In this document: piece by piece, positions 29,658 to 64,000 of the stretch
Layout of the letters: every line of letters begins with the position of its first letter
How positions within the stretch are numbered: the first letter of the stretch is position 1
Assembly (NCBI GenBank): GCA_017628025.1
Contig: JAGBZX010000001.1
Coordinates: 1,268 to 65,267 of the forward strand
Reading direction: 5' to 3'
Origin: Kiritimatiellia bacterium
GTDB taxonomy: Bacteria; Verrucomicrobiota; Kiritimatiellia; RFP12; UBA1067
DNA: 64,000 bases
Position numbers and translations under genes: made by a program
The notes under the pieces: model-generated
Told to the model about the DNA's origin: nothing
Seen by the model: only the letters and a program-made list of their open reading frames with translations
Database searches by the model: none

Positions 29658-29686
29658 ATTATACTATTATTTCCCTCAAGTTTCAA
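29658..29686 (-). promoter_or_regulatory. Internal sigma70-type promoter in front of the secretin gene
   Basis: Minus strand TTGAAA (29686..29681, overlapping the upstream stop codon), 17-nt spacer, TATAAT (29663..29658), 29 nt before ATG 29628. Confidence 0.5.
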
Positions 29687-33462: not shown

Positions 33463-33463
33463 A

Positions 33464-35312: not shown

Positions 35313-35319
35313 TTTTGCT

Positions 35320-36423: not shown

Positions 36424-36425
36424 CC

Positions 36426-37562
36426 CTACCCAAGCACTCTAACAGTGTCTTTAGCAATCATAAGCTCTTCATTAGTAGGAAGAACAATAACTGGGATCTT
36501 TGAAGACTTAGCAGAAATGACAGCAATAACGCCGTGAGATTTCTTATTGGCAGTCTTATCAAGTTTAATACCAAGGCCCTGAAGGCGATTGATAATGCGT
36601 TCGCGCACCTCAGTTGAGTTTTCACCGATACCGCCAGTCATAATAATGGCATCAGCGCCACCGATAATAGCATTGTAGCCACCAACATAAAACGCAACGC
36701 GGTATGCGAGCATTTCAAGGGCAAGCTCTGCTGCCTTATCGCCCTTGGCGGCCTTGGCACAAATATCGCGGCAGTCACCGCCAGGAACGCCAGAAAGCGC
36801 CTGAAGACCAGATTGCTTGTTGAGAAGCTTGTCCATTTCAGCTGGCGTCTGACCTTCTGCTTCCATTATTGAAAGAACTGCTGCTGTATCAATGTCACCG
36901 CAACGCGTACCCATTACCATACCTGCAAGAGGAGTAAGTCCCATTGAAGTATCTACAACTTCGCCATTTTTAATAGCAGCCAATGAGCTACCATTGCCAA
37001 GATGGCAAGTGACGAGGTTAAGCTTAGATAATGGCTTCTTAATCAACTTTGCCGCAGCCTGTGTTACAAACTTGTGGCTCGTGCCATGGAAACCATACTT
37101 ACGAATGCCGTACTTCTTGTAGTACTTTGGATCAATGGCATACATAGCTGCGCAGTCAGGCATCGTCTGATGGAAAGCCGTGTCAAAAACTGCAACATTA
37201 GGAACGCCCTTGAAGATTTTTTCGCAAGCCTCAATACCACCAAGATTAGGTGGCATATGAAGTGGACCAAACTTAACGAGCTTTTTGAGCTTTGCCATAA
37301 TTGGCTTTGTGACCTTAACAGAGTCTTTGAACTCTTCAGCACCATGGAGGACGCGGTGTCCAATAGCGTCAATGTCCTTGGGGTTGCCAAGATCGGCGAC
37401 TACTTGCTTGAGCGCTTCTGCATGGTTAGCAGGACCGCCTGCACCGATTCTCTCCACGAGGCCCTTTGCGAGCCTCGTTTCAGTTTCCATATCGAAAAGC
37501 TGGTACTTAAGAGAACTCGAGCCCGAATTCACTACCAGCACTTTTCTAATCTTATTCTTCAT
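36426..37562 (-). CDS. ackA: Acetate kinase
   Basis: N-terminal VLVVNSGSSSLKYQLF signature, FHGTSH, and overall acetate-kinase layout. Confidence 0.97.
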   Translation of the reverse strand: MKNKIRKVLVVNSGSSSLKYQLFDMETETRLAKGLVERIGAGGPANHAEALKQVVADLGNPKDIDAIGHRVLHGAEEFKDSVKVTKPIMAKLKKLVKFGPLHMPPNLGGIEACEKIFKGVPNVAVFDTAFHQTMPDCAAMYAIDPKYYKKYGIRKYGFHGTSHKFVTQAAAKLIKKPLSKLNLVTCHLGNGSSLAAIKNGEVVDTSMGLTPLAGMVMGTRCGDIDTAAVLSIMEAEGQTPAEMDKLLNKQSGLQALSGVPGGDCRDICAKAAKGDKAAELALEMLAYRVAFYVGGYNAIIGGADAIIMTGGIGENSTEVRERIINRLQGLGIKLDKTANKKSHGVIAVISAKSSKIPVIVLPTNEELMIAKDTVRVLG

Positions 37563-37580: not shown

Positions 37581-40500
37581 TTATTGAACAACTTCAACTT
37601 TATAATATCCAGACTTGCAGTCAAGTGTTTCCGTAAGAGGCACTTCTACAACTGCTTCATCAGCACCGATGTTTACAGTAATCTCGCTCTTAAGCGTCCA
37701 GTCCGCCTCGGCAAGTGTTGCCTTGGTGTAGATCTTGAGCGTTACTGTTGCATAGTTCTTGCCAGATTCGATACCGAAGATGTCACGGAGCTTAATACCT
37801 GCAATCGTATCAGCGACAGAAGCATCAACGCCAAGTATGACCTTCTTGCCGGCAGTGTCAAGCGTCATAGAGGAGATCTTAAGCGTATCAGGAACAATCT
37901 TCTTTTCGATTGCATCGCGGATTGCGCTAATAGAGCTCATCTTGCTGACATCAAGACCGATGAGGGCCGCAGCAAAGTCTGCACTCTGGAAGACCGTAAG
38001 CGAGGCGCCCGGGAGACCAGCGGAAATTGCCGCGTCAAAGACACCAGAGGCGATCTTGTTGGTGATTGTTACAAAGCCTTCTGGAAGAATGACCTTGTCA
38101 GAACCAATAGATGTCTGAGACTTAACTTCCTTGACAGATTCCCACTTGCCTCTCCAGCCAGCGGAAGCATATTCCCAAGCATCAGGGAGCCAGTCGCCAT
38201 CAGTATCAGAGTCTTCAATCCAGACACCAACGATAGGTGACTTAACTAGTTCATTATTAAGGACAACCATCTCGCCAGCATAACCCCAAGGCTCGAATGC
38301 GCTAAGCTCGCCGTCGCCATCCATATCGATGAACGCACGAACAAAGAAGTCACCATTTGCAGGTAATCCCTTGAGCTTTGCATTAGCAGTATTGAGCGAA
38401 ATATTCTCAACATCATTCGTTGCGAATGTTTCAGCTACTGGCGTACCAGAGAAGTCTGCTGTCGTGAACGCCTGAACACGAACCGTTCCGTTTGTACCAG
38501 CGCCCTTATACTTAGCTAGAACAACAGAGGAGCCAGCGTACTTAACACTTACGTCAATAGCCGAGTAGCCGTGATCGTTAACGTCCTGCTGGGCATTGAC
38601 CATCGTAGCGAATGTCGAGTAGCTCGACCACTTGGTTGTTGACTCTGTTGAGAACTTAGCGTTGTACATGCTAACTCTCCACTTATATGAAGAGTCGGTA
38701 AGGAATGTCTTGCCGTTAGCAAGTTTCTCACCTGCGCAAATTGGAGCAGTCCAAACAAACTGACCAACCGAGTTCATCTGAGGTGCGCGGCAGATGCCAG
38801 AATCCCAAACAAGACCGTCAGAAGAGTCTGTAATCTGGAGCCTGAAGGCCGTGTACGTTGAGCCAAACTGCTTAGCCCATACCGACTCACCAGGCATTGA
38901 CCACTTGAATGTCGGCCTTGCGCCATAGACAATCTGCGAGACGTTATCGAGCTGAGGTGTCGCGCAAATGCGGTCAAAGCGTCTTGTCACGAGGAACTTC
39001 GAAGCTGCGATTTCTTCCATATCGTCTTCGCTTTCAAACGAGCTCTTGCCTTCACCGATGACAACGAGGTAAGAAACGTTCGTAATATTGAGTGCGTTAT
39101 AGTTAAACGCATCTGCAACATACTTGTTATTCATAACCTCAGCGTTAAACTTAGCCCAGTCAATATCGAATTGACCATTGCCGAGGAAGTCAGCCTCAGT
39201 AAGCATTGAACGAGCTGCTGTCGTGAAGTACTTATCCATCACAATCGTAGGCAATGCCCAGAGTTTGTAGCATGGGTAGCCGTTAATCGCATGTCTTGCA
39301 ACACGAACGCGCGTGCTCTGCTCAGAGATTGCTGCTTCAACTAGCATATTTGTCTCAGTGTTGATGCGGCTATCTGTTGTGTAATAACCCTCTGCGGCAA
39401 GATCAGGTCTGTCAGATGTACCTGCGGCAAGATCAATGCGAGGCGTTATTGCGCTATGCTCGCTAAGCTCGATTGTAACCTTCGCGCCCTGCCAGCCTAC
39501 TTCAACATTACGGACAACACCATAAACTGTTTTTGTAGCTGTAGCTGTTGCGCCCATGCCACCAATACCACCCATACCGCTACCGGCAGAAGGAGCATTA
39601 CCACCAGCAGAAGGTGTAAACTCTGCTGTGAAGGTCGTAAAGCCTTCCTTGATGCCAGCGTAGCCCTGATCAGGATCAGAGAGGTAGTAAGTACCGGCAG
39701 TATTTGCGCTTACAGACTTAGACTGCCACTTGATCTTGACATATGCAGAACCCAGACGAATAGACTGGTAATCTGTTACGTTGTTGTTACGATCAGAGGA
39801 GTTTTCATCTTGCTCTGCCATTTCTGGATCCCCAAGCCAAAGCTCGTTGAGCGCTGGGTTGGCGAAGTCGATGGTGACCTTACCTGTCTTGTAATCAATC
39901 GTGCCAACTTCCGTTTCGCCGCCAAATTCGCCGCCAAGCGTTACGAGCTTGCCTTCTTTATCAACGACGAAATAGTACCACTGAGCTTCTTCAACGAGAC
40001 CGATGGAAGTAGCCTCAAGCGTTTCAGGGTTGACCCAAACAAATCCGGTATCCTTGAAGAAGAGTCTAAATGTACCTGCCTGAACAACGCCAGGGCCAAG
40101 ATAGTACGTCTTTCTCACCTTCGGGTTGATACCGATGTACTTAGTTGAAGGTTCGACTTCAGTAGCGGTTGTCTGACCTAACTGTGTACTAGTCGTCATT
40201 TCAACGGTGTTACCGACAGTCCAAACTGCGTCTGGCTGCTTTGTCATATCAAAGTTGGCCTTTTCGTTCCACGCCTTGAATGTTACGCTGCCTGCGAGAT
40301 TTTCTGCGCCATTGTAGACGAGATTCATCTCAATAACAGGTACTGGATGCTCGATGCGGATAAATCCATCGATACCAGAAGATGCATCAACATCAGGATC
40401 AGTGTTCGAACGGAATTCAGCATAGTTAGACCAGCCGTCGTTGTCACGGTCAATCATTGGGTCATACTCGCCTGGATTTGCGTAGAGCATACCATCAACT

Positions 40501-55500: not shown

Positions 55501-56906
55501 TCTTTTGTAGGCGTCGTAGCTACGCTCTCGTCAGAAGCAAAGCGGAAATAATCTTCCCACTTGATATCAGCATCTGCAACACCATTAGTTGCATTGAAAG
55601 ATGGCGTAAGTGTTACGTGAATCGTCGTATCAACTGGCTGATTCAAGTAAACTGCAACCATGCTTTTAGAGTTTTCTAAATCGCCATCTGCAGTAACTTC
55701 AACTGGGTCAATTTCAAGATAAACTGAAGCCGACTCCTTCTCAGAGCACATTACCGGCACTTCGAGATAATCTTCCACGCGGTTGTTGTTCGTGTCATAC
55801 GTGTAATAGGGATAGGCGCTCAGGACGAGCTTAGCCTTATTCGGGTGCGCGACACCGTAAAGCTTAAATCCGCCAGTCGTGGAGCCGCGGCTAATCGTAA
55901 CCTTGGCCATCTGGACAGTCATCGTCTGCTTTTCAAGCTGCCCGCCCGCGCCGGCAACGATGTTCGTCACAATCGTAGTAGGCGTGCCGCCGCTGATCTT
56001 GACTGCCTTTTCGTCTGTTGACCAGACATAAAGCGTAATATTATCTTCTTCGACCGCGCTGTCCGCCACTAGGCTGGCTGTGCCGTAACCGATCTTTGTT
56101 GAAGCCTCATGAACTGTGCGCCACACGCCTTCCGAATCGTCGGTAGGCGGAATTTCCCACTCGGGATGGAAATCAACTGTCTGGACGTAGAAGCCGCATT
56201 TCTTGAGCGTGAAGTCGGTTTCACGACGACCCCATGGCTTCTGGTCAAGAACGTTATCGACATTTGAAGCGAAGACGAGATCAGCAAATTTGCTGTCATT
56301 GGCACCTGCAGAATCGTTGTTGCCATCACGAATCTGCCATTTGCCCTGATCGCCAACTTTAGTGGAAAGACGGTTGAAGACGTATTTTGAAGCACTTCCT
56401 GATTCCTGCGCGGGCATGTAGTTGCCGTCTTCATCTTCAACGGCCAACTTGATGGGCAGCGCGAAATCACCGGGCTTAGTGGTGTACTTAAAGACGAAAT
56501 CGCTGTAGATGTATCCGTCGTCCGGCTCATCAGGATTCACAGGAGTCAAGAACTGCGTTTCCACGAGATCCGCCCAGCGAAGCTCACCAGAAACATAGAT
56601 ACCGATCTGAAGCGGATACATAGCTTCGTCAAGCGTGGGTGAACCCCACGTGACATCGTTATGCACGAGCCTCCAGTGTGGATTATTAATCCCGTTTCTA
56701 ACAAGCCTCATGACGAAGTATAAGTCTTCACCAGCTTTTAGCGGCTCGCTTATTGTTGTGTAGGCGTCTGCCTGCACATACTGCAAGGTTCCTGCTTGTG
56801 TAGCTGGTTTACACGGACGGATTTCGTATATGTCCGCTCCGGTGGCAACTCCCGCCAGAGAAATAAGTCCAGCGAGTAATATTCCGGATTTCATTAGTGA
56901 TTTCAT
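37581..56906 (-). CDS. Giant secreted calcium-binding repeat protein (6441 aa): PKD-like + TSP3-like motifs + LamG + three super-repeats
   Basis: Uninterrupted 19,326-nt ORF. ATG 56906 has AAGGAG 8 nt upstream. Signal peptide MKSLMKSGILLAGLISLAGVATGA. About 30 DxDxDGxxDxWE-type motifs counted by eye. Residue numbering was checked against nucleotide coordinates at two points (V2679 = 48872; D5486 = 40451). Confidence 0.9.
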   Translation of the reverse strand: MKSLMKSGILLAGLISLAGVATGADIYEIRPCKPATQAGTLQYVQADAYTTISEPLKAGEDLYFVMRLVRNGINNPHWRLVHNDVTWGSPTLDEAMYPLQIGIYVSGELRWADLVETQFLTPVNPDEPDDGYIYSDFVFKYTTKPGDFALPIKLAVEDEDGNYMPAQESGSASKYVFNRLSTKVGDQGKWQIRDGNNDSAGANDSKFADLVFASNVDNVLDQKPWGRRETDFTLKKCGFYVQTVDFHPEWEIPPTDDSEGVWRTVHEASTKIGYGTASLVADSAVEEDNITLYVWSTDEKAVKISGGTPTTIVTNIVAGAGGQLEKQTMTVQMAKVTISRGSTTGGFKLYGVAHPNKAKLVLSAYPYYTYDTNNNRVEDYLEVPVMCSEKESASVYLEIDPVEVTADGDLENSKSMVAVYLNQPVDTTIHVTLTPSFNATNGVADADIKWEDYFRFASDESVATTPTKEESEQALTLEFTANSTARQYVYIYPLKSDEYTRTKAKPIRLTPSLGAGEQEASGIKNLNAASFTIKAAKPVITGVEHEDSVESGASLPLTITLSDIFADITDEENGYTLKINGSTLPGKYFYKEEKLVAIDDEGNVTLPSVSYSTSGEKTGTIQVLSPYGKQWSEIYTFNVTVKDVTTIVIQTIDGKDNTYNEGDSVNFQIGFFSGDEQIKLGQDAYAFLYSEDEIDLKQFDESFIITNLQTAAAGTSGIKIGKNVTSWVSNSMLALDGANIAKNGAKFRFQVVLCTSKSWNPDNKIEGYPTSEELNFRVYNVEPVIRGIYVNDSADAYEDGSTYPTKVPVGMTRRFRPFVDDPGEFDLTTTDTNEQFRVQWSVYLDGELYEEDPFIIQGNPSGDNPTNFYYTFTQAGVYTFRCKVKDKDMSRYTDQSSSVSVEVLNQPYVMVTGPEGSTAEVDETLLDENDTRGARFTVSLDYFDNRYAGDVKVKLEVVQYGEGNRPNPGKLLLDSAFASTEPGEEEGVYYVTLSKTKKTQVINAIELDGTDNAEIFGFEIKASVVTENLLPTPNEKANDYYLPSSHRVYIKNVAPVVSVTPEENTNHWEVAGGAATGHPISWKIMSDVMDDFTNKWADGTQGGIKVTFTGCANQFSTNITGAASGTFVPNFGAAAGEQSVTLMIEDKDGGSHSYTWLFKVTPSKFLITTATGPFGGDSTSQLSQKYALAKGIGKGHTYVSGASFTSAENFQLKWNCGKQITMTVYGFGYKDGDIDNGALSNGLDQQIDGSGNNTDPTVNIADDSCYKYDGEGYDSFFYCWLAQDKNDNTGAGGSTVLNGAILPERPGAVSSGRVTLPTEYTGDGSYLDTHIEAIFAREWRAADNLGDINQDGIPDVFVHRTWGGGKLLELLGLSSIENDLTDIAASNPDEDLMPGVYMANGTLQRVDGIMRSYAPIGNVALTTFREIRGLDGLGLNATDLTSSDPEFSPVETNAYFATVHSKTPDEVAEELAKPVDEREAWATITKEDLEKWSPEPTGEQSRLDPTKADTDSDGFDDGWEYFFWYAAKVLVPGGAYKVQEGQKYPFERFNHLRLVTGDEIPASLVVEQFNPCSRRVDEAAEKTFDFDNDGLSDIEELIIGTNPCHWDTDGDHMCDGWEVMMSLDPLANSKNTNEDGDFMAYEHFQRLAYIDPSTGIMYFDCDNQLVAGEDYKQEPVYNDKMEVISNIYYVIKADGIQLKRAVVSLTTTVDGGNPVPLKYGREDDYDPQNPTIFGAALCYPQERDGILIPAGAPLYLDRYVFLHDQIYTRYGFDPRTAWYMNDDGLVGARWEPISDSDIAGMAMRTKEYTTYDEYLLARYRQHFNIMYPGMQEPPDPENTWGWLGLMTTIPTVTLEEEVTDDEIIDTTGTNVTTNVSSNATTQAGQNQTDNKTDAEVSNALADALAAANQGKNVVRAHGADSDGDGVPDGWELYVYRNPRQAPGDEETRTAFEPPILGLMLPLDRDDDGLVYAAEFAGTDSCNAYSGCQSIYSRHPGNTKGWFNKFFPTDPNQPDTDRDSIADGQEGNDLLGEGGVEMRAFIFGTPTDDGSRCIRGGGLNPLTVDTDQDALPDPWERQYAGSPTDLSTGAPSNTVSIADGVAGKTLNVVYLAGGMDGTWYGDTYTDPVEEQVEGDQWTAHSFDPLLGTVRDVDFDHDGLENWQEYLIQTVRHFRWDDCTTLLMGRMLKEGPNGAGHAQGFMGYAPMSHSGSGYGVNVAAYVYGPEGVEVVVTTNGIAVTTNELTNVMVTNYVTVVTSNVSSKATAVLERMNAAGVFSQPWSEMGWKFCGYMSRPECAWDRSYTEPTLPAKEILLPPIATPDNMSDIYLMPSYLSYVSTDPRNWDTDGDGMDDYYEMFHGLNPLLGSVQAGSKDVIAEAYGRAELFNAAFNEWTHTDYDRSKIFMDPPQNGSAVRPTPITLPLIYDWMMYPWFAGALEADPDGDGINNYEEMLKANLTSPNPTHTDPTPRWFTDSGMPMSFTAQYYTQGAPVRNVMFPDSELPFKLTSLATSDEYYQNAIMGSMREDPAAPQQAFLTSFEENEGYDTDNDWVADGREIIKTVKVATDPLDFSDPERHQAAWFDGTDSFMMTRTQAYRGSDANDMFKQFTVEAWICPERKGIVQTILDRAVLYSGNTAVNPGAVIRSNFRLGIDEQGRVFGLFDNADALESGSNEPVSCQRVTGQMLELGKWVHIALTYNGKKLTLYVNGQIADSAETTLIPANGVVFVEQDIGSGLLTGLYDFMPTTLYLGARPIHTPSLENRGDPLVVDKVSYNTIREYFGGYIDEVRVWDGARTSAEILGNYRKRFTMADAKDNRISAYQVWLNRGTRNDNDGLPMLPPELLMHYSFTSLPGATDPAWVSKTPSGFNKQILDITEVDYTKMQDMDFTGCYDVARPELPNLVEVSCNLKGGAYGTYKLGEKTALSYGWWNECETKSRVYNDITVVPWVENTVAHLPAMDSSTMDSLYYSEALAASYVDPTDSGVERFIFPNAANPYSFFNYGADRYLTLFRRNRLVEQMGTKYEPILNLYRYEVRSRLVGPSDLLPMGGAYARRAKEMWDGVPADAWEYTAADDNANGISDWWEEYARGNYGNITWDQDINWNTLIIYHGAEMPAYQAFLIDLAMGLQPNGQFDSDFVSTADTNANNLPDWWEDLFGTKGGADDDDDNDGLSNYNEYLISFGSSPYGIKNGFPILNPLKNRTGRDQLVTDYYLSGPDHAILLSDRHISPNSYIGQIVSDTDFVENWWEKKYNYSFASSKKYDPDYDKDEDGWSNWAEARAFIWRGSFAADVVDRFIDGDNHIICYPEPAIGVRLSYNGVQDTSSKGLVVRTFSGYTPRVDATFTVPAYGVARSKIIGGYYADNVIRGFLTPGNLIPAEVRFERASMSAERTYRWHYVDGLGERFEYSGTYEEYRRQLLFNPALILDDIVLEWVEFGKTLSDADGNKGDIVFAGTDSAGNSVSVNIGKINYRTGEYSIDLAAVESATGESFEGNIFQVIWSYRIGNEYPQAIWLSEPVSGRVKEGKNTVEAFIDMDGDGVFTPGIDPYGAVHDVEIGWHKTKELIIELKDESSAIARVNVADAQGAGNAAQGATQDEITTTVVVRRTSINGSTIFNDKTVPVRTLLTKTFVNDDRSYITEADVISANTPDLDWKWLLKDATKLGIAVEDLRTAGYEITKRSILTDGTVTNDVISTFENEFLASRSIAIAKEPLATAPVYRAYPTMSFQTGDETMKAYRLQIATSTNKTDVIYDSGIKILPGRIGYTVGTLVHTVTPEFYWNCAVTTNGSYYVHDASNYYWRVALLNSKFNTAEFDSDWSKWTAFQMDVSNVNRYPLLPTGYGKCGAVVRYFGCARTNELSGAVVVEAFASADFTGMPLDRKRYTDVSRLSSIADITTTDVVLGGIEPGEVYLRAYIDLNNNGRRDAWEPWGYANRVGTDAVDIYTPDAIQVTDEVNAFEKKIIYIEDPDTNRNEIPDCTEAEFFSTSVTAEVVGNDSDGDGLSDEDEASFGTDPSMWDSDGDGMPDGWEAIFADMDPLFADAGEYTDGDVMAFATMDAKLVTIKSNAPDAELVTYIMKTDDTLPVGGDLAKGLEVYNSFEYPVIEDGVEVKYIGRGGLITIDDPAPITNIVDDVTNVVQYVNRVVNVYDAKVALLHAQVYAEFGFNSLTAVNATNAVNTKVFTALDKYLLLRYFASLGICEEADVNQKNLWKSYSLVPYNVDYDEDGVPDGWELYVMFGKNDMNLESFTNGKAISCWKFDDREIDEDADNLKLVNEYDRGNMPTDPWNDHTVSSVFNDSDAYFYDIKTPEAQFSDVDNDGLSNIQEYKAREYGLVLDVRKLMTDTVTNDYFRQVVVAGNTHYIGEVVADHDFIEDSIESDFGYNRGLYDATKDTDKDGWSNWSEIRSFVETGVSYIADVISNEVIRSNISSEEYDYIRNNYAVLEDNISVSTSMDAAGNWTSSISGSIRYLDTQTVMRVQSNYAGVPYPTINVKLAYSGEKDIDAGAFVIEAYASANMQKKLCWWVVPQSDYEGSMAHNGYLSMSLKIPQHGYLKEGDIHFAAYADINGDGMYNAAEPFGIVKSIPVGYSRAADFTIELTDVTPVVPRIDILAATSDRTVLEGSTTNTSNVVFGSTPAAPVAPGATAGTAGGTTSSIDGEQIRVRIVRTAINGDTTAKKRTLLNRIYTVANRSFIHEGDFYTALKNDIDPYLAADAKSMGLAPSAIADATYEVILGDAKYKAGQTNENVFATFKNEYPSTRSSGLPIAPSANSRGVVTAARPSFEFNADTQAYTAYALQVSRDENFGDVVFATTNLLSGAVKGVVTAEPRFFAEDGATYFWRVALFNAKFSSLEKLSSQDVVWSEAAKFTVDLSGEATANVKYYGPSATAGNIVVEAYSTPDFAGIAKSRVVGSSLVDGAASITLSGLPNGEYYLLAFIDRNGDGVRQSYESWGYACNVGTQDAEIWTPVSVTINADAVFDPAVATVYIEDTDINQNFIVDVLDNEDDLKAAEEAISSESDDDSSNDTSDRDGDGLKGFEEEEIGTDPDSVDTDGDGMWDGWEVWAGTDPLDAEDADTVVDGDVMAYSEVVMTTVRTRSTLTGTEEIYVLPEGAALPVIGDNMNDKVLNKAFEYAGGMYGIGASVTIPSTAKYILAGISNTTDNVVSSYLFTEDAAINVGDNVTGRQAYEIASVDGGIYTLGTLTNLNVDVTIIEPTSSNVVSTVTAVDVTLGENRAIEVNTEAKVVLLHNQVYRKYGFNSKTANGYIASEDRINTKEFTALDKYLLIRYYEAMGLCDERVVNAAADWASWSLKPGIIDSDWGDSEGRYGDGLPDGWELYTGYSPWDFADRTTDDDSDSLPLYNEFDRGNSPSDPNTVDTDGDGVTDKHAFYYHLKGEDARKDADGDGLSNYAEYLVSEVFNFVKLDPNNPKTDGSVVDYFRKVGEMYLGEMFTDHDRVGDDWEYQFAMAGVDGMLYANPGEYDPMIDRDNDGWSNYAEFRSNTDPDVDASSGIDGFIRIEHPVPVIEMNLVYNGAENLAGSVTFKAWNEKANFDMTKQPDAVWTVGNTVEMTTSTQLGQTTATEVEPSTKYIGINPKVRKTYYLGPGVVQAGTFRLFFKDTGFVWVNPETLEATSIGLVEEAQWYYFVVDKEGKLVTLGGEFGGETEVGTIDYKTGKVTIDFANPALNELWLGDPEMAEQDENSSDRNNNVTDYQSIRLGSAYVKIKWQSKSVSANTAGTYYLSDPDQGYAGIKEGFTTFTAEFTPSAGGNAPSAGSGMGGIGGMGATATATKTVYGVVRNVEVGWQGAKVTIELSEHSAITPRIDLAAGTSDRPDLAAEGYYTTDSRINTETNMLVEAAISEQSTRVRVARHAINGYPCYKLWALPTIVMDKYFTTAARSMLTEADFLGNGQFDIDWAKFNAEVMNNKYVADAFNYNALNITNVSYLVVIGEGKSSFESEDDMEEIAASKFLVTRRFDRICATPQLDNVSQIVYGARPTFKWSMPGESVWAKQFGSTYTAFRLQITDSSDGLVWDSGICRAPQMNSVGQFVWTAPICAGEKLANGKTFLTDSSYKWRVSMYNAKFSTESTTKWSSYSTFATMVNAQQDVNDHGYSAIDVSVKYAGSSVVLAKYKGAGTNGTVRVQAFTTADFSGTPVAETFATNDVENISLNTANAKLKGLPANGDFFVRAFIDMDGDGELSAFEPWGYAGEMVVLNNELVKSPIVGVWIEDSDTDGDWLPDAWEYASAGWRGKWESVKEVKSQTSIGSDKVILPEGFVTITNKIASGVFDAAISAGLPGASLTVFQSADFAAALIGLDVSKMSSISAIRDAIEKKIVPDTLKISSMTLDTAGKKVILGVDASVADTIAGIKLRDIFGIESGKNYATVTLKIYTKATLAEADWTLKSEITVNIGADEAVVEVPLTETLDCKSGYYKVEVVQ
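38139..47429 (-). repeat. Three diverged protein-level super-repeats of ~1090-1150 aa (SR1 ~43983..47429, SR2 ~40719..43982, SR3 ~38139..40718)
   Basis: Collinear landmark strings recur with periods of 1149 and 1088 aa. DNDGLSNYNEY / DNDGLSNIQEY / DGDGLSNYAEY occur at aa 3166, 4315 and 5403. The others are D.DGWSN[WY][AS]E; YYWRVALLNSKF / YFWRVALFNAKF / YKWRVSMYNAKF; and DAWEPWGYA / QSYESWGYA / SAFEPWGYA, each followed by [IV][YW]IED.D[TI]. No DNA-level identity is evident. Confidence 0.8.
48492..49184 (-). other. LamG / concanavalin-A-like lectin domain within the giant protein (aa ~2575-2805)
   Basis: FDGTDSFMM...FTVEAWICPERKG...LGKWVHIALTYNGKKLTLYVNGQ...LYLGARP...FGGYIDEVRVWDGARTSAEI follows the Laminin_G_3 pattern (F-T-x-E-x-W ... 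W-x-H-x-A-x-T-Y-x-G ... L-Y-V-N-G ... G-x-I-D-E-V-R-x-W). Confidence 0.8.
53418..53753 (-). other. PKD-like domain 2 within the giant protein (aa ~1052-1163)
   Basis: HPISWKIMSD...IKVTFTG...GEQSVTLMIEDKDGGSHSYTWLFKVTPS. Confidence 0.4.
54186..54566 (-). other. PKD-like domain 1 within the giant protein (aa ~781-907)
   Basis: QFRVQWSVYLDGELYEE...NPTNFYYTFTQAGVYTFRCKVKDKDMS...SVSVEVL resembles the PKD pattern (Y-x-F-x-x-x-G-x-Y-x-V-x-L-x-V-x-D). Confidence 0.45.
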
Positions 56907-56919
56907 TATTTTCGTCTCC

Positions 56920-57300
56920 TTACTTCGTCTTACCGTTCAAATCAATATCCTTAAGCATGCGATTGCGTACCGTCGCTTCACTTTTGCGGCGAAGCACGTC
57001 AAATTTCTTTGCATACTGAAGTTCCTGTGCTTTTAAAGCGCGTACTTCCTCGCCCTTGCCTTCAGGGTCTTTCTCTGAGGCAGCTTTGAGTTTAGCACGC
57101 AAAATCTGAAGCTCTTTAACTAACATCTTCTGCTCTTTCTGAAGAGCATCAAGTTCTTTTATATACTTTTTATCCTGCATTCTCTTCTCAACAGGCTCAC
57201 GCGTATCTGGAGCTTTGGGCGCTACCAAAATAGCCAAGAGTGCGCCAAGTATCGCTAGCGCAACTATAATAGCTATCGTTAGAATTTTCTTCTTACTCAT
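56920..57300 (-). CDS. Single-pass membrane coiled-coil protein (hypothetical), coupled to the giant gene
   Basis: 126 aa with TM ILTIAIIVALAILGALLAILVA, then a charged heptad-like segment KELDALQKEQKMLVKELQILRAKLKAA. Its ATG overlaps the upstream stop (ATGAGTAA), and its stop lies 13 nt before the giant ATG. Confidence 0.7.
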   Translation of the reverse strand: MSKKKILTIAIIVALAILGALLAILVAPKAPDTREPVEKRMQDKKYIKELDALQKEQKMLVKELQILRAKLKAASEKDPEGKGEEVRALKAQELQYAKKFDVLRRKSEATVRNRMLKDIDLNGKTK

Positions 57301-58771
57301 AAGTATTTTCCTTCTTCATCGGCTCAACCTCAATTGGCTGACGCTTTGTGTTGATGCCCCACGAATAAAACACAGGATACTCTAAGTACTTGTCCCAACC
57401 TGCTGTAGAACCAGGCGATTCGCTAGATCTCGGGTCGATAATTTCAATAACCGACTGGAATTCCTTCTCGTGACCCTTGGGGTAGAACGAGTTTTCATTA
57501 AATACAAACCACCTAAGCGGCACCCAGTTTGGTGAAGTGTGCGCAAAATCAGTCTTGCCGTTGCTAAGGATGCCGCGGACGTTGAACGTCGGGCCATTCC
57601 AATCAGAAGACTTAACGAAATTAAGCGAGTGCGAACCGACATCGCGCCCACGCATTACTCGCGGCGGATATGCTTCGTAAGCATATTCTGGTGAATTATT
57701 CGAAATGCACATATAAATAGTACCTATTTCATTACCACCTGTTGCGCCATTCTTAGGTTGAGGAACGGTAGAAAAGCCTGCCTTAAAATACATATTAGAC
57801 TTTGTAGGATCAATATCTAACCAGTACATCTGCGTAAGCGTAAGGTTAGTAACTATTGTTCCGCTATAATTTACAAACTTCGCTAGTTCAATCTCTTCGC
57901 TTTCTGGGTGCGCCCAATCTTGACCAAAGACATCCTTGCTATTTCTTAGCCAATCCATAACAGCAGGCGTAAAGGGATCATCAGGATCTAAGCCATAATC
58001 AAACAACTTCTTAGAAACACCAGCAAACGCCGTAACTGTAACATTGTTTGATGCGCCCTTACCAACTTCAACAGAGTATGTACGAGGCTCTGGCAGCGTC
58101 GTAAAGACAACTTCCTTGCCATTAGTAGTTACGCTCTTTAATTCATACCACTTGTCGACGGTATAAGTAATATTTGTGCCAGTAAGGCTACCCTTCTTAA
58201 AGACAATCATCACATTGGAGTTTGACTTAACAACATCGCCAAATGTCTGCTTGATGTAAGGCAATGTCTGGTCGAGATTTGAGAAAATAAAGATATCTTC
58301 ACCGTTTGGCGTTGGGTGATCAGAGCTAATCTGCTGACTAGCGTTGATTCTGCCAGGCGTCTGAGCCATGATATTATTCCAAGTTGCCGCGGTTTCACCG
58401 TGCGACTCAAACACACCTAACGAAGCACCAACTGGACCGTTGTCATAGCCCGCACCAAAGAACGCCGTCTGCTTGCCGGTCTTTTTAATAATTTCATTCA
58501 TACGCCCAGCTACATAATCAACATCACCATTAAGCGCATAACCTTCATACTCAGCCCAAAGGTTTGTGCCGGCTACGACTATTTCATGCTCGATAATGCC
58601 GCTAGGTCTTACGAGCTGAACTGCAAAAGGATAAATCGTGCTAGCTTCACCTGTCGCACCAAGAACGGAACCAGGCTTGGAGATATTCCAAACACCATCA
58701 AGTTTACCATTCTCGCGCGTAAGCTCCTTCTTGTTAAGAGTGTATGGGCTTGCAACTACATGGAATACATA
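57293..58771 (-). CDS. 3' segment (492 codons) of a large beta-rich protein; no start codon for the first 90 codons
   Basis: The track calls 57293..58501 from the first ATG. The frame is open for 90 more sense codons up to TAA 58774..58772, with no ATG/GTG/TTG (every triplet checked). The extension reads YVFHVVASPYTLNKKELTRENGKLDGVWNISKPGSVLGATGEASTIYPFAVQLVRPSGIIEHEIVVAGTNLWAEYEGYALNGDVDYVAGR. Confidence 0.7.
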   Translation of the reverse strand, partial: YVFHVVASPYTLNKKELTRENGKLDGVWNISKPGSVLGATGEASTIYPFAVQLVRPSGIIEHEIVVAGTNLWAEYEGYALNGDVDYVAGRMNEIIKKTGKQTAFFGAGYDNGPVGASLGVFESHGETAATWNNIMAQTPGRINASQQISSDHPTPNGEDIFIFSNLDQTLPYIKQTFGDVVKSNSNVMIVFKKGSLTGTNITYTVDKWYELKSVTTNGKEVVFTTLPEPRTYSVEVGKGASNNVTVTAFAGVSKKLFDYGLDPDDPFTPAVMDWLRNSKDVFGQDWAHPESEEIELAKFVNYSGTIVTNLTLTQMYWLDIDPTKSNMYFKAGFSTVPQPKNGATGGNEIGTIYMCISNNSPEYAYEAYPPRVMRGRDVGSHSLNFVKSSDWNGPTFNVRGILSNGKTDFAHTSPNWVPLRWFVFNENSFYPKGHEKEFQSVIEIIDPRSSESPGSTAGWDKYLEYPVFYSWGINTKRQPIEVEPMKKENTYE

Positions 58772-59015
58772 TTAGATGTAGACCACTTTGAGTCCTTTTT
58801 CGCCGGCAGGTTATCTGTGCCAAACCTTGCCGCGATATTCGTAACTATCACGTCATCTGCGCGCTCTAAAAGACGAACCTCCCAATCATCAAGCGCAGAC
58901 TCAACGGGAGCCGCAATCTCGACATACTGACACGTCGCGTCAGTATTTTCGTCAGTTACATTGTCAAACATACCAAAGACATTAACCTCGTTAATCCAAG
59001 CCCAATCGGGAGCGA
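58576..59015 (-). other. Lamin-tail-domain (LTD)-like region spanning the frame change
   Basis: The first half lies in the upstream frame (INEV ... QYVEIAAP ... DDWEVRL). The second half lies in the downstream frame (YVFHVVASP ... EASTIYPFAVQLVRPSGIIEHEIVV), matching the LTD pattern I-x-E-V ... [FY]-[VI]-E-[LI] ... L-x-G-W-x-L ... then a final strand pair. Confidence 0.45.
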
Positions 59016-62000
59016 CTGTATCAAGAATATTAAACGCGGCAAACGTTGCATCTTTGGTGACCTTGTCGCGGTTGTAATCAATTGGCGAGTACCACTCAGG
59101 CGCGCGCCACATCGAGTTATCAAGATAGTTTGTAATTGGCTGAGAGAGGTCTGACTTATTGTAATAAACAACTTCAAGCATATACTGAACAACCTCACCA
59201 GCGACAGTAGAAGCAGGAATTACATTATCACCCAATCCTAAGTTAGTTGAACGGAAGACTAAGTTAGTCCCCTCAACGCGAGTAAGCTGAACGCGGAACT
59301 TCTTCTTGCCTTGAGGAGCATCATAATCCTTCCAGTTATCGTATCCCCACGGAAGAATGCCCTTGTACCAGCTAAGGAACACCTGTGGCGGACGGGCAAC
59401 AAAATCAACTTCGTCTGGGAGCTGAGCTGCGTAAACTTCGCACTGAACACCCCAGCTCTCGTTGCAAAGCGGCTGCTCCTTAGCCGTTGGCACGCCTTCA
59501 ATTACCGTCAAATCGCTCATATGATTGCGGAAGGCGCCAACATTGCGGAACTTAACAGCAGGATCTACCGCCTCGCACACAAGGAACTCATCGATAATAA
59601 CGCGCTCAACATTATCACCGTAAAGTGGCACGCCTAGCCTAAATGCCGAGAAGGTGCTGCCTTGATTTGCCTTATAAGAATACGTCTCAAAGGCATTATT
59701 CGTAATTGAAAACGACTGTAAAGCCTCCCATGATTCATCTGCCGCGTCAGTAGTCTTGCCTTTACGAGCACCGTAGAGGACGAGCTTAGCAGCAGCTGGA
59801 CCATTTTTCGTCTTAAACTTACGAGCTTTAAACGAAACTTCACCAACGATATCGTCTGTAAACGTAGGCGACTGAATGAACGGCATATGGCGCTCGTAAA
59901 CAATCTCTTCCTCTTCGCTTTCGCCGTCAGGGAGAATCCTCGCCTCCGGGTTCTTATACGAGTTATTAATCGCCATTGAACGCCCAGCAAAAGCGAGATT
60001 TTCAGAGAAGTCAGGTAAATACGTGCGCCCCTCAGCATTTGCGCCGTCCCAATGCTCCCAATCGATATCTGCGCCCTCGGCGTTCTGGCCTACGCTACGA
60101 ATGTTCCAGCCCCACCAAGCGCGCTCATCAATGCGCGGCTCGTCAGAACAAGAAACCTCCGTAATGCGAACCTCACCAAACTCCGTCTTGTCAACGCTAT
60201 TGGCGACATTCGTAACTACAGTTGGGTCAACGACTAACCTAAACATACCCTGAACGCCATGTAAGCCGGTGTAAACTGTACGCGAGCCAGCCTTGCGTTC
60301 TTCATCTGAAAGAACTGAGAAGTTGAAGTTAGAAATCGTGTGCCAAATCTCGCTATTATGAATATCGAGGTTTGCCGGCGAAGCAGTAGTGTAGTTAATA
60401 TTCGTAGCAATCTGAAGAAGAATTACCGTGTTCTTCTGCGCATCAGCATAACTAAAGCTAAACTTACCCAAACCTTCGCCGCGGCCATACATTCCGTCAA
60501 AGAGCGGGCTCTTAATCGCTGAAGGTCTTGGGCCTGTCGTGCGACGAGCTGAAAGCAAGATACCCTTCTCTTTAATCCAAGATGAAGAGAAGGTGAAGTT
60601 AGTATAGTTGTACTGAGTATCTCCGACTGCGATTCTATTGTCTCCGCCGTTAACATAGTCGTATGCATTAGCCCAGTCATCGCCGCGCCACTGCGAAACA
60701 ACAATCTCGTCGATTACAACATCAACTCTAACATCATCAACCTCGCCACCGACCTGGAAGCGAATCTGCGAATCATCATTGAGATAAAAGTTCTTCGAGA
60801 AATCAAGCGTCGAGCCAGATGTACCAAACGAATTAAACTCATTCGTCCAAACTGTGCGCCACGCGCTTTCAGTGCCGTCGTAAGATGGGTTTCTAAGAGC
60901 AACATAAAGCTTTTGAGAAATTGGCGAAGCCCTAAAGCCGAAATCGTTGGCATCTGTTCCGTTAAACCTCTCCATGCGCCCATACTGATAATACCAATAC
61001 TCGTTAAGTATATCATCGCGGCACGAATACGATTCAGACGGCAATTGAACTTTACTCTTGTAATTACTCGTGGTAGCCTCTCTACTTACTACAGCAGCTG
61101 CTTCGTAGTAATAAGGAGCTAAAAAGATACCTTCAGAGTTTGCAGATAATAAACCATATGTACCATTTTTATGAACATTGCTACTGTCAGTATACTTCAA
61201 AGAATACCAAACCTCACTAGTCTGTGCAAAATCTGTTTGCACGGAACTGCCGCTCATCGCAGCTGCACCTAACCTTACACCAGCCCAAATAACAACAGAG
61301 TTTGCCGTGTTTGAAACTGAAACATACATCGGTAAATACTTTTGGTTGGAAATTGGCTGAGTGATATCGTTCTGGAAGTTATCACCGTCCTCATTGCTCT
61401 TCTGAAGCGAAACTACCGTATTTGTCCATGCCTTAAGCTCTTTAGAAGTATACTTACCGGTAGAGTCACAGCTCCACTTAAGAAGTACTAACCTCTGGCC
61501 CTTGTTACCGCGAGAATTATTCTTATTATGCACATAGTTGCCTTTGTCCTGCGGGTGATCTGCAATCTGCTCCCATCTTGCTTCATAGCAGCCACGCCCA
61601 GGGATATAGTGCGCTATGAGCGAGAGCGATGCATTACCGCGATATGCTTCGTTCTTCTTACCGTCAAAAGCGACACGAGCTGCGAACGTATAGTTCGTCA
61701 TATTCTGGCGTTCACGAGCACCTGCGTCGTAGTATGAGAAATTCTCGAATTCAATGCTTTGACCGAGTCTAGCGTTATAGCTAATAGTATCAATACCACG
61801 AGGCGTAGGAGTCTGAACATACTCTACTCCGCCGCGTCCACAGCCTTCCATCTGAAGTGCCGCGCCGCTCTTTGTATCACGATACTTCTCTGCTACCCAC
61901 ATACCCTGCTTGATATCCCAGCCGTTATACCAGTTATCAGCAAATGTCTCATATGCTGGATAACCAGAGGCAACAGTAAACTGATTGCCCGTCGGGAAGC

Positions 62001-64000
62001 TTAGCAACCACCTTGGGCTTTCTGATGGCATATCAAGCCATGTATCAAAGTTTTCAATATACGTCTTTTGCGTTGACGAAACGCCTAGTCTCTTGTCTGT
62101 TTCATCATCACGGCCAACGAAAAGCTGTAACTGGCTAGAAGCGGCGTCATTCCACTTGTTGAAGTCCTGATAATCAGCATGAACGATCGTAAGCCCATCT
62201 GTGCGATCGTCAATCTGGAACATCAAATAACCAGTCTTGGCATCATTAGGGACCTGGCTCCATTCTCCATCTTCACGAACAACAAGCGAGCCCGTCACTG
62301 GTACATTGTTAGTTGTGAACTGATCGCCCCATACTTCGATGTTTTGCTGATACTCAGTAGCTCCATTCTCCTGACGGTTCATCGCAAGAACCTTGTAGTA
62401 GAACTTACCAACGCTATTTGTCGGCGTCTGGACATAGCCGCGCCACGTATGGTTTTTAACTACTTCCATCACATTTGTAAGAGTTGTTCCCCCTTCGCTA
62501 AACTTATACTCAATCTTAAGCGCTTCATACTCACTTATGCCTTCTCTTAGGCGAATAAACCAATCTGCGCGCGCCTTTGAGTTACTCGACATCTTTGAAG
62601 TATAACCAGTCTTAAAGTCTGTAATCTCTTCAGTATATCCTGGCACCCCTAAGCCCGTACCAGAATAATCCACATACTCATAGTATGGGGCTTGGACAGT
62701 ACCTGAGAAGTAAAATTCAACATCACCTACGCCGCCGGGGAGATTTAACGGCTCAAACGCCTTAAAGCCATTACTTGGGTTAAGCTCAACGCTGTACCAT
62801 TCGCGGCCAAAATCAGGCGTTGCACGCTGCTCAAGGTAACGCCAGCGGTAATGCATCTTAGCACTTGTTATAAATTTCGTAGCGTCCGCTGTCTCTAACA
62901 TGCTATTAGTGTAGAACGAAAGAGCAGCGCGCCCATAAAGCTCATCAGTAGCTGAAGGATAAGCTACCGTCATTGCTCCTGCCCAACCAGTAATTTCTTT
63001 GCCAACCTTAGCCGTGTCGTTCGTTCCATACGGCATAAGTTCAGCATACATTGCAGGCGTAGAAACGATAATATTATCAAGAATAATAAAGTTACCATCG
63101 TCAGGCTGATACTCATTCGAAGCAGCCGCCTTAGTGCGCTCAATCTTAAAGCGCACCGGTCCCTTAATATTAAGCGGAACGTAAATACGGTAGAAATTGT
63201 TCGTTGTGCCGCCATTTCTTACTAAAAGCGCCAATTCATTCGTGCCGCCTCTTGAGTTTTGCGCTTCAGCCTTAAACTCTGTCGTTCCATCTCGCTTAAG
63301 TGCAAAAATTTGAGCTTCCTTCCAGTCGGCGTTTGAGTAACTATTAGTAAGCTCAACAGCTTCATCTGTCGGCATCGTTACGCCATCCTTGCAAGTAGTG
63401 GCATAATAAACCTTAATCGCGCAGTTCTCTGCCGTAGCTGCTGTTAATTGGTTAACCGCGTCAAAGTATATTGTGCCGATACCATCTTCAAAGCACTTTG
63501 AAAACACAACCGCGCCAAGACCGTCATAATCTGAAACCATATTGCGCATTACCAGGGTGCCGACGTTTCGAGCTTGAAGTCCAACCAAACCACTACCATT
63601 TATATTTCCAGATGTAGAACTCCAAGGCAAATAGTTTTCTGTACCTACTGTAGCTCCAAGAGCAATAGTATTTGCTCTAAAGGTATTACCATGGCGGCAA
63701 TTAATAAGATTCCAAAGTATCTCGCCCTTATCCTGCTCAGTACCTTTTGTACGAAGCATAAACTCATAACCTTTCTTCATATTCTTGTAATCTGAAGATG
63801 TTGGCGCAAAAGTATCATTCGAAGCATCAAAATCCCACCATGTTGAATATGATGGAGAAGATCTGTTATATCCCTGATTTGTAATCGGGCAACTAGTATT
63901 TCTATCATCATTCATCAAAAGTATTCGCCCATTATCACCGCCACCGCCAGAAAGAATATCTTGCTGGGGAGACCTATCGCGGATAATAAACTCAATTGTG
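58756..64000 (-). CDS. Large beta-rich protein, 5'-truncated by the window (at least 1747 aa here); jelly-roll-like modules and the start of a lamin-tail-like domain
   Basis: The track start (63918) is a TTG, but the frame is open to the window edge (...TIEFIIRDRSPQQDILSGGGGDNGRILL-MNDDRN). Repeated module boundaries: G-x-[IF]-x-F-x-[AY] openings (GIGTIYFDAV, GIDTISYNARL, GLGKFSFSYAD, VGEVSFKARKF) and hydrophobic-D-[EN]-hydrophobic closings (NFIILDNIIVS, VDVVIDEIVVS, ERVIIDEFLVCE). The C-terminus reads WINEVNVF...QYVEIAAPVESALDDWEVRL. Confidence 0.8.
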   Translation of the reverse strand, partial: TIEFIIRDRSPQQDILSGGGGDNGRILLMNDDRNTSCPITNQGYNRSSPSYSTWWDFDASNDTFAPTSSDYKNMKKGYEFMLRTKGTEQDKGEILWNLINCRHGNTFRANTIALGATVGTENYLPWSSTSGNINGSGLVGLQARNVGTLVMRNMVSDYDGLGAVVFSKCFEDGIGTIYFDAVNQLTAATAENCAIKVYYATTCKDGVTMPTDEAVELTNSYSNADWKEAQIFALKRDGTTEFKAEAQNSRGGTNELALLVRNGGTTNNFYRIYVPLNIKGPVRFKIERTKAAASNEYQPDDGNFIILDNIIVSTPAMYAELMPYGTNDTAKVGKEITGWAGAMTVAYPSATDELYGRAALSFYTNSMLETADATKFITSAKMHYRWRYLEQRATPDFGREWYSVELNPSNGFKAFEPLNLPGGVGDVEFYFSGTVQAPYYEYVDYSGTGLGVPGYTEEITDFKTGYTSKMSSNSKARADWFIRLREGISEYEALKIEYKFSEGGTTLTNVMEVVKNHTWRGYVQTPTNSVGKFYYKVLAMNRQENGATEYQQNIEVWGDQFTTNNVPVTGSLVVREDGEWSQVPNDAKTGYLMFQIDDRTDGLTIVHADYQDFNKWNDAASSQLQLFVGRDDETDKRLGVSSTQKTYIENFDTWLDMPSESPRWLLSFPTGNQFTVASGYPAYETFADNWYNGWDIKQGMWVAEKYRDTKSGAALQMEGCGRGGVEYVQTPTPRGIDTISYNARLGQSIEFENFSYYDAGARERQNMTNYTFAARVAFDGKKNEAYRGNASLSLIAHYIPGRGCYEARWEQIADHPQDKGNYVHNKNNSRGNKGQRLVLLKWSCDSTGKYTSKELKAWTNTVVSLQKSNEDGDNFQNDITQPISNQKYLPMYVSVSNTANSVVIWAGVRLGAAAMSGSSVQTDFAQTSEVWYSLKYTDSSNVHKNGTYGLLSANSEGIFLAPYYYEAAAVVSREATTSNYKSKVQLPSESYSCRDDILNEYWYYQYGRMERFNGTDANDFGFRASPISQKLYVALRNPSYDGTESAWRTVWTNEFNSFGTSGSTLDFSKNFYLNDDSQIRFQVGGEVDDVRVDVVIDEIVVSQWRGDDWANAYDYVNGGDNRIAVGDTQYNYTNFTFSSSWIKEKGILLSARRTTGPRPSAIKSPLFDGMYGRGEGLGKFSFSYADAQKNTVILLQIATNINYTTASPANLDIHNSEIWHTISNFNFSVLSDEERKAGSRTVYTGLHGVQGMFRLVVDPTVVTNVANSVDKTEFGEVRITEVSCSDEPRIDERAWWGWNIRSVGQNAEGADIDWEHWDGANAEGRTYLPDFSENLAFAGRSMAINNSYKNPEARILPDGESEEEEIVYERHMPFIQSPTFTDDIVGEVSFKARKFKTKNGPAAAKLVLYGARKGKTTDAADESWEALQSFSITNNAFETYSYKANQGSTFSAFRLGVPLYGDNVERVIIDEFLVCEAVDPAVKFRNVGAFRNHMSDLTVIEGVPTAKEQPLCNESWGVQCEVYAAQLPDEVDFVARPPQVFLSWYKGILPWGYDNWKDYDAPQGKKKFRVQLTRVEGTNLVFRSTNLGLGDNVIPASTVAGEVVQYMLEVVYYNKSDLSQPITNYLDNSMWRAPEWYSPIDYNRDKVTKDATFAAFNILDTVAPDWAWINEVNVFGMFDNVTDENTDATCQYVEIAAPVESALDDWEVRLLERADDVIVTNIAARFGTDNLPAKKDSKWSTSNMYSM

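Follow-up and report, generated by a model that had tools for sequence, protein, structure and literature searches.

The stretch of DNA analysed here (the window) comprises 64,000 nucleotides of a contig from a Kiritimatiellia bacterium (GenBank assembly GCA_017628025.1, contig JAGBZX010000001.1), and its minus strand carries every large open reading frame (ORF). From position 37581 to the window edge at 64000 this strand is filled by consecutive ORFs, all of which an ORF check of the window recovered at the following coordinates (aa, amino acids):

58756..64000, minus strand: larger part of gene A; 1747 codons without a stop up to the window edge; encodes the conserved core of a secreted protein of 2944 aa
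57293..58771, minus strand: C-terminal part of gene A; 492 codons in the -1 frame; conservation within the family extends to the last residues
56920..57300, minus strand: gene S, 126 aa; signal-anchor transmembrane (TM) helix, RMxDxxY motif and charged helix-loop-helix
37581..56906, minus strand: gene G, 6441 aa; signal peptide, isoelectric point (pI) of 4.37 and 27 DxDxDG loops

These ORFs form one operon of three genes, A, S and G, which is kept in gut and rumen Kiritimatiellia, spans about 28 kb and encodes about 9.5 kaa (thousand amino acids) of protein. The three genes are joined by translational coupling: the stop codon of A (57295-57293) and the start codon of S (57300-57298) share the overlap ATGAGTAA, and the gap between S and G measures 13 nt, with an AAGGAG that overlaps the S stop codon. 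Since the GC content is 46-49%, an ORF of 6441 codons such as G is not due to chance. Scans for promoters and terminators gave counts no higher than in shuffled sequence. A first-pass annotation of this DNA had listed four coupled ORFs, and their coordinates, the stop-free frame of 58756..64000 up to the window edge and both junctions (the ATGAGTAA overlap of A and S and the 13-nt spacer with AAGGAG between S and G) were borne out; the number of genes, by contrast, is three instead of four, as the two ORFs of A are joined in a 97%-identical contig.

A single-base deletion in gene A

The two ORFs of gene A meet at the following site:

58766..58771, minus strand: site of a 1-nt deletion that splits gene A into two reading frames

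What had been taken for a frame change between separate ORFs is a single G missing within gene A: in a DNA alignment with contig L006, the window lacks one G near position 58768 (ATGTA in place of ATGGTA). The closest database homologue of A, the protein P0001, is encoded on L006, is 97% identical, measures 2944 aa and is uninterrupted; it spans the junction without a break (...KDSKWSTSNMVFHVVASPYTL..., also given as ...STSNMVFHVVASPY..., STSNMVFHVV). Because the homologues are intact and one G is missing, 58756..64000 and 57293..58771 are read as a single gene A, about 705 N-terminal residues of which lie beyond the window edge. A programmed frameshift between the two ORFs was rejected as an explanation, given the lack of a slippery heptamer, the single missing G and the intact homologues.

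Either the assembly is in error at the frameshift, or the mutation is very recent. If it is real, the operon might be decaying in this strain, with A truncated at about residue 2452 or reduced to a pseudogene, as the G missing relative to L006 and the stop codon that the original frame hits nine bases past it would suggest. However, the 492 codons past the shift nearly match those of the intact homologue, with one synonymous and one non-synonymous change between them, no further lesion is found within 26 kb, the relatives examined are all intact, and a single-base indel is also typical of assembly or sequencing errors. We consider decay doubtful, if still a serious candidate.

Protein A: a variable head on a conserved beta-sandwich core

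A is a Sec-exported protein with a variable head and a conserved core of 2.2 kaa. The N-terminal head of P0001 consists of a signal peptide and a Gly_rich_2 domain (PF21722, 3.8e-22); annotation across the family is confined to the heads, which differ from member to member (Gly_rich_2, DUF2341, Laminin_G_3). Dozens of W, R, D and G residues are invariant in the 2200-aa core among 34 sequences of about 30% identity. Profile searches returned no Pfam or NCBIfam match for the window A ORFs (E<=0.01), no Pfam match for the core in 17 family members (E<=5) and no PDB match for the A-family profile (E<=1). Between A and G, no sequence similarity was found.

AlphaFold2 (AF2), run on the family alignment, gave essentially all-beta models both for core residues 1-1150 (mean predicted local distance difference test score, pLDDT, 81.9) and for the last 1089 residues (mean pLDDT 82.4), the latter modelled as tandem sandwiches resembling discoidin domains, reelin repeats and carbohydrate-binding modules (CBMs). 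In Foldseek searches against the PDB, residues 1-1150 matched MAM, cleaved-adhesin and legume-lectin folds, and the matches of the A models together included MAM domains (meprin, RPTPmu), the cleaved-adhesin domain of Kgp, legume lectins, reelin repeats, neuropilin b1b2, the discoidin domains of factor V/VIII, CBM22 and alpha-2-macroglobulin. All are generic jelly-roll, galactose-binding-like sandwiches at 7-15% identity, and no enzyme fold, barrel or helical anchor appeared among the AF2 and Foldseek results. The A core is thus predicted to be a chain of at least ten jelly-roll sandwiches of the MAM, discoidin, reelin-repeat and ConA-like kinds.

The label “LTD/jelly-roll”, under which A was first described, is upheld by AF2 and Foldseek in its second half and fails in its first: the lamin-tail domain (LTD, PF00932) had no Pfam match at E<=5 in the 17 members, and no lamin tail appeared among the top 50 Foldseek matches to the PDB. 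The INEVN...QYVE...W motif of A bears some resemblance to an LTD, but the assignment is not confirmed.

Protein G: a giant with calcium loops and length-variable repeats

The following regions were distinguished in G:

52407..56906, minus strand: G_N, residues 1-1500; conserved N-terminal region, a separate gene product in some relatives
47607..52406, minus strand: G_mid, residues 1501-3100; best-conserved part of G, with TSP3 loops and one Laminin_G_3
48759..49100, minus strand: the Laminin_G_3 domain, residues ~2603-2716; 66.5 bits against a cut-off of 27.6, 3.8e-18
38157..47495, minus strand: G_C, three copies of a module of ~1.1 kaa (residues 3138-4200, 4313-5300 and 5374-6250)
37584..38156, minus strand: C-terminal domain of ~190 aa, conserved, ending in G[FY][FY]KVE (aligned in L086, L087, L088 and L008)

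The signal peptide of G is followed by a conserved mature N-terminus (DIYEIRPC...). Searches of Pfam and the PDB, including those with a profile, gave no significant match for G_N. TSP3_bac (PF18884) was detected in all three tiles of G (25.9, 33.8 and 50.6 bits; cut-off 25), and Pfam returned weak Ig-like matches (Y_Y_Y, Ig_Rha78A_N, DUF2141); by self-comparison and Pfam, each G_C module is made up of a Rha78A-N-like Ig domain, a DUF2141-like sandwich and TSP3 loops. NCBIfam matched G to CglD and MtsD only, with the TSP3 loops alone being covered. The Sec signal peptide and the calcium-binding character that the first-pass annotation had attributed to G are thereby supported, the latter by the pI of 4.37, the 27 DxDxDG loops and TSP3_bac; in both giants the Sec-type signal peptide is the only hydrophobic segment.

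In relatives, G residues 1-3100 are 24-68% identical, with 28-61% for G_mid across the loci, and the extent of the repeat region past residue 3100 varies. The length of G in relatives lies between 4019 and more than 8000 aa: it occurs as one gene of 4019 to 7335 aa, or is split into two or three genes in other relatives (1867+2307 aa or 2073+1325+8076 aa). An indexed search with G_N retrieved 10 proteins, none longer than 2400 aa, and the giant orthologues of G were found through gene neighbourhoods.

Protein S: a small membrane-tethered helical hairpin

S is a new small family of membrane-tethered helical hairpins. In the window, S has a KKK n-region, a hydrophobic helix of 22 residues without a signal-peptidase site and a charged helical remainder, while 38 of the 53 orthologous small ORFs show a lipobox pattern such as ...LAGC(S/G)...; beyond these, a few further orthologues look lipobox-like by eye, and about ten have a plain TM helix like window S. 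The alignment shows a conserved RMxDPxY, two long helices with a loop, and an NRxxxxxxVRxR motif. Profile searches of Pfam and the PDB with S gave compositional matches alone (designed helical hairpins, coiled coils).

As A and G contain no hydrophobic segment past their signal peptides (a C-terminal one included), S is the sole membrane-anchored component, and its orthologues are mostly lipoproteins, which strengthens the earlier suggestion that it acts as an anchor or chaperone. A chaperone of the Skp/OmpH type is not supported: the searches gave generic coiled coils and designed hairpins, OmpH is neither among the 11 families listed for window S at E<=5 nor among the 25 commonest of the 101 families matched by 25 S sequences (E<=5), and Skp is not among the 60 PDB profile matches listed for S (E<=10). 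A classical secretin pilotin (PulS/GspS type), a small outer-membrane lipoprotein encoded with the secretin that it binds, seems unlikely: most S orthologues do have a lipobox, but S has TM-anchored variants and lies between A and G instead of next to the secretin.

One metagenome-assembled genome (MAG, SRR873601_bin.173) appears to contain two A-S-G cassettes (L012 and L084), one with a lipoprotein-type and one with a TM-type S; the loci L072 and L085 are listed beside this observation. The two anchor types may mark paralogous lineages of the cassette and not simple drift among orthologues.

Conservation and distribution of the operon

One genome per GTDB species was scanned with the A-family alignment; 168 stretches were confirmed by tblastn, the best 80 of which yielded 77 loci, and counts of gene order rest on the 67 loci that extend 1.5 kb or more past the end of A. 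In 56 of these 67, A is followed by a homologue of G residues 1-1500, in 5 by leuS and in 6 by neither. The G homologue starts 80 to about 2100 nt after A (less than 800 nt in all but one), and a small ORF fills the gap in 53 of the 56 loci. Tables of called genes show the order A, S, G in L001, L002/L003, L006, L007, L008 and L089, and the cassettes of relatives consist of an A of 2500-2950 aa, a gene of 102-144 aa and a giant with Laminin_G_3 and TSP3_bac. The gene order first noticed in the window thus recurs in its relatives, and the cassette is apparently undescribed, as first proposed: a literature search on it or on PF21722 found nothing relevant.

The loci come nearly all from gut or rumen Kiritimatiellia MAGs, and named homologues from rumen, colon and human gut. 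When 1.84 billion proteins were searched exhaustively by phmmer with 1150 aa of the A core, 276 clusters at 50% identity emerged (198 of the 276 at E<=1e-30), mostly of 2000-3700 aa and up to about 7000 aa; the A family is real, of moderate size and narrowly distributed. Paralogues of A (27-32% identity) stand alone before leuS, without S or G, in L004, L005, L067, L073, L080 and L083, and it follows that S goes together with the A-G pair. When the window is compared with L006, A has a ratio of non-synonymous to synonymous differences (pN/pS) of 0.21, and the first 3200 codons of G have one of 0.12; both genes are under purifying selection.

Further observations concern the surroundings and history of A. 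Synonymous divergence from the L006 strain is mosaic: it reaches about 0.085 over the first part of A and 0.068 over G, drops to about 0.003 over the final 492 codons of A and is similarly low in S (one synonymous change). This mosaic suggests recent recombination over the A-S junction. The paralogue of A in L004 lies near Wza/Wzy-type polysaccharide export genes. The contigs of the two closest relatives with long contigs, L006 and L089 (68 and 64 kb), end 400-700 bp short of the A start on its upstream side (start at 691 and 410, respectively), which suggests a repeat or an element that is hard to assemble just beyond the right edge of the window. Short contigs with A homologues that were binned as Lachnospira, Azospirillum, Barnesiella, Methanomethylophilaceae and Faecalibacterium (L021, L023, L060, L065 and L077) most probably come from Kiritimatiellia and were mis-binned.

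In 18 of 30 informative loci (among others L001 7483-10041, L010 5342-7903 and L017 5236-8076), the strand that carries A also has a fourth gene upstream of it, U. U encodes about 850-950 aa with a signal peptide and no Pfam match, overlaps the start of A in L001 and ends in an [FY][FY][KR]x[ILV] strand, which makes it similar to G at the C-terminus. A sorting domain common to G and U was considered and is not established: a joint hidden Markov model retrieved nothing but its seeds and a few orthologues of these among 1724 ORF tails, and the two groups, although both end in [FY][FY][KR]-type strands, align poorly.

The genes downstream of G

Downstream of G, the minus strand of the window continues with the following genes:

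34236..37562, minus strand: ackA, pta and a kpsF-like gene (SIS/CBS); housekeeping genes directly after G, in a conserved position
26239..34207, minus strand: PilMNOPQ-like cluster, which starts 3.4 kb downstream of G and contains the five genes below
33464..34207, minus strand: Amuc_1102-like protein, 247 aa
31798..33501, minus strand: PilM, with a PilM_2 match
30770..31801, minus strand: Amuc_1100-like protein, 343 aa
29676..30770, minus strand: TSP3 protein, 364 aa, with TSP3_bac repeats
26239..29637, minus strand: secretin, 1132 aa and unusually long, with a Secretin match

The order G, ackA, pta, kpsF, Amuc_1102-like gene (PF28178), PilM, Amuc_1100-like gene (PF28028), TSP3 protein, secretin, coaE and rho is common to the window, L086, L087 and L088, and in part to L008 (ackA-pta-kpsF after G); it was obtained from the contexts of PilM homologues at 52-58% identity, in which G measures from 2300+ to 6457 aa. 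By BLASTP, the 247-, 343- and 364-aa proteins and the secretin of the window are 37-79% identical to their orthologues. PilM_2 and Secretin were matched in the window itself, while PF28178 and PF28028 are carried by the orthologues in L086-L088, on whose precomputed Pfam matches the Amuc_1100/1102-like identity of the window proteins rests; the two window genes stay blank in our Pfam scan because these two models lie outside it, and phmmer found no match for either protein in the PDB.

The presence of the secretin/PilM cluster 3.4 kb downstream of G, as first annotated, was confirmed. By its gene families, it is the Kiritimatiellia counterpart of the pili-like cluster Amuc_1098-1102 of Akkermansia muciniphila (PMC5332112, Ottman 2017; reviewed in PMC10688800). 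The D-x-D-G-D-G motif that had been proposed to connect the cluster to G is indeed present, as TSP3_bac repeats in the 364-aa protein; being generic, it is weak evidence for such a link. A functional link of A-S-G to the secretin cluster may exist.

The gap between G and ackA measures 18 nt (37563-37580) and contains no terminator-like site; in L086, L087 and L088 the two genes are 13-26 nt apart or overlap. ackA and pta may therefore be co-transcribed with a 19-kb gene for a surface protein, or a promoter may lie inside the 3' end of G. Farther downstream follow coaE, rho, recA, nusA, infB and priA, and the window also encodes lipid A and glycosyltransferase genes; the surroundings of A-S-G are chromosomal backbone, not a mobile island. 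At its far end, the minus strand carries genes for an 861-aa right-handed beta-helix protein and a cellulase of glycoside hydrolase family 5 (GH5), at 3000-5585 and 8212-9342, which fit a polysaccharide-degrading lifestyle.

Relation to known giant-protein systems

Giant adhesins of type I secretion systems (T1SS), such as LapA, SiiE and MpIBP, are very large and acidic, with calcium-stiffened beta-sandwich repeats and ligand-binding modules, and a variable number of repeats sets their reach. In contrast to A and G, these proteins lack a Sec signal peptide, and they feature RTX repeats, a C-terminal T1SS signal and adjacent genes for an ABC transporter, a membrane-fusion protein and TolC, none of which was found here. 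Pfam and NCBIfam scans of A, S and G (E<=0.01) gave no RTX nonapeptides (HemolysinCabind), autotransporter, LPXTG, PEP-CTERM, C-terminal domain of the type IX secretion system (T9SS), cadherin or VCBS, and no POTRA/ShlB match that would indicate a TpsB partner; Pfam scans of the other large ORFs of the window gave no ABC transporter, membrane-fusion protein or TolC gene. Cohesin, dockerin and enzyme modules were likewise absent from A, S and G in Pfam and NCBIfam, including the A family. The absences listed in the first-pass annotation (RTX, T1SS genes, autotransporter, LPXTG, PEP-CTERM, T9SS, cadherin, VCBS) thus hold, and profile, PDB and literature searches assigned neither giant to an adhesin or S-layer family that is characterised and has a dedicated exporter.

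Among giant secreted proteins of the Planctomycetes-Verrucomicrobia-Chlamydiae (PVC) superphylum, the dockerin-type giants of Omnitrophota, which lie near loci similar to type II/IV secretion systems and for which a role in attachment was proposed (West-Roberts et al. 2023, 10.1101/2023.11.21.568195), share with G many bacterial TSP3 repeats. However, they exceed 30 kaa, whereas the proteins here measure 3-8 kaa; no dockerin, EF-hand or discoidin match was found here in Pfam; that work describes no fixed trio in which a giant is joined by a second one, like A, and by a small tethered protein, like S; and the host here, from gut or rumen, belongs to a different phylum-level lineage. TSP3-type loops like those of G, together with an envelope-associated adhesive role, are also found in CglD, a gliding adhesion lipoprotein, and MtsD, which acts in cell cohesion, of Myxococcus; with 16-29 bits against cut-offs of 400 and 800, G is a member of neither family.

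At the level of modules, the signature domain of thrombospondin, in which a type-3 repeat wire is wound on an L-lectin-like domain (Kvansakul 2004, as cited in 10.1101/2023.11.21.568195), has in common with G_mid both DxDxDG type-3-like loops and a lectin-fold domain of the ConA/LamG kind, although this is a resemblance of modules seen in sequence alone, EGF domains are missing and family membership stops at TSP3_bac. Like A, the eukaryotic MAM, discoidin and reelin ectodomains and bacterial CBM arrays are chains of jelly-roll sandwiches for extracellular recognition; at 7-15% identity and with low TM-scores over the multi-domain models, the likeness is one of fold only. The Amuc_1098-1102 cluster contains the same families as the window cluster (Amuc_1102-like, PilM/FtsA-like, Amuc_1100-like, secretin), not A-S-G, and the nearby gene named for it in Akkermansia is lgt (Amuc_1104), not ackA or pta. 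On present evidence, the A-S-G cassette would fall under the giant multidomain envelope or adhesin proteins of PVC bacteria and is not a categorically new mechanism.

A putative glycan-binding surface structure

We propose that A, S and G form a membrane-tethered, calcium-stabilised, glycan-binding surface structure, to which we assign an even chance. The three proteins would be made in fixed proportion because their genes are translationally coupled. After Sec export, S would tether A and G at the envelope or help to assemble them there, and the product would be a lectin-rich structure, stabilised by calcium, for binding the glycans of plant fibre, mucus or other cells, with the repeat region of G setting its reach. 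For crossing the outer membrane, the neighbouring Amuc_1098-type secretin would be one candidate.

Several points weigh against this proposal. Both the surface location of A, S and G and the formation of a fibre are steps that we infer; neither a known sorting tag nor an exporter of the outer membrane is encoded in the operon; folds of the jelly-roll and lectin kinds are generic; and A is frameshifted in this particular sequence. Moreover, a switch between a TM helix, which is confined to the inner membrane, and a lipobox fits an inner-membrane protein that faces the periplasm, and this favours a role of S in chaperoning or assembly, or a periplasmic complex, over a surface anchor. The TSP3 repeats of OmpA-family proteins lie on the periplasmic side. 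Bacterial TSP3 repeats are found in OmpA-family outer-membrane proteins, too (Dai 2017, as cited in 10.1101/2023.11.21.568195).

These points lead to the possibility of a complex within the envelope, in which A and G, held at the inner membrane by S, would be a scaffold in the periplasm or across the envelope and not a surface fibre. The uncleavable TM helix of S in the window lineage, which is not compatible with Lol transport to the outer membrane, and the lipobox elsewhere point to the inner membrane, and the OmpA-family repeats as well as the failure of Pfam and NCBIfam to reveal an outer-membrane sorting signal would agree with it. Still, about 9.5 kaa of lectin-like sandwiches and length-variable repeats is typical of exposed adhesins, a mass such as that of A and G is hard to fit into a normal periplasm, and the variation of the G repeats between close relatives (4-8 kaa) suggests diversifying exposure. 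An envelope scaffold appears rather improbable.

Conversely, A and G might be released as non-anchored glycan-binding scaffolds that capture substrate or form a matrix or biofilm, with S as a transient helper in export or folding. Neither giant is itself anchored, their folds are lectin- and CBM-like, and the hosts are polysaccharide degraders, with the GH5 cellulase in the window and GH9 and SASA genes near a paralogue. However, S is strictly conserved and tightly coupled to A and G, which suggests a stoichiometric partner instead of a catalytic helper, and the modules expected of such scaffolds (cohesin, dockerin, enzymes) were not found. We regard release as very unlikely.

As to the export route, A and G might be cargo or structural partners of the Amuc_1098-1102-type PilMNOPQ-like machine, through whose secretin they would pass, or to which they would be attached, once Sec had exported them. 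The order from G to the secretin recurs even where PilM is 52-58% identical and, in L008, G_N 30% identical; one protein of the cluster carries TSP3_bac repeats, as G does; the window contains no other exporter; and the Omnitrophota giants lie beside type II secretion-like loci (10.1101/2023.11.21.568195). On the other hand, ackA, pta and kpsF intervene, and coaE, rho and recA follow, so that the order looks like conserved backbone; the cassette of L002/L003 is located near dnaA and dnaN; the TSP3 motif is widespread; pilins or a secretion ATPase are not adjacent; no giant-protein partner is mentioned for the Akkermansia cluster, the best-studied one (PMC5332112, PMC10688800); and the region downstream of G is informative in five loci only. 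Such a role is unlikely in our judgement. As it concerns the export route, it is compatible with a glycan-binding surface structure and would be an addition to it, not an alternative.

Taken one step further, A, S and G, joined by U in many genomes, would constitute a dedicated surface apparatus that is assembled through or onto the adjacent Amuc_1098-1102-type secretin/PilMNOP machine, for which we see a slim chance. If true, this would represent a Sec-dependent route of export and anchoring for adhesins of several thousand residues, by way of the envelope machine with which Akkermansia displays Amuc_1100. The operon also prompts the question whether giant cargo is handled in related lineages by the Amuc_1100-type secretin cluster, which has drawn medical interest in Akkermansia. 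Should A-S-G merely be another adhesin, the value of these observations would mainly lie in better annotation; with the A core and S, two families that are unannotated in Pfam, NCBIfam and the PDB are defined. Kiritimatiellia are abundant in rumen and hindgut and almost entirely uncultured, and the operon provides a concrete, testable candidate for their attachment to fibre, mucus or other cells.

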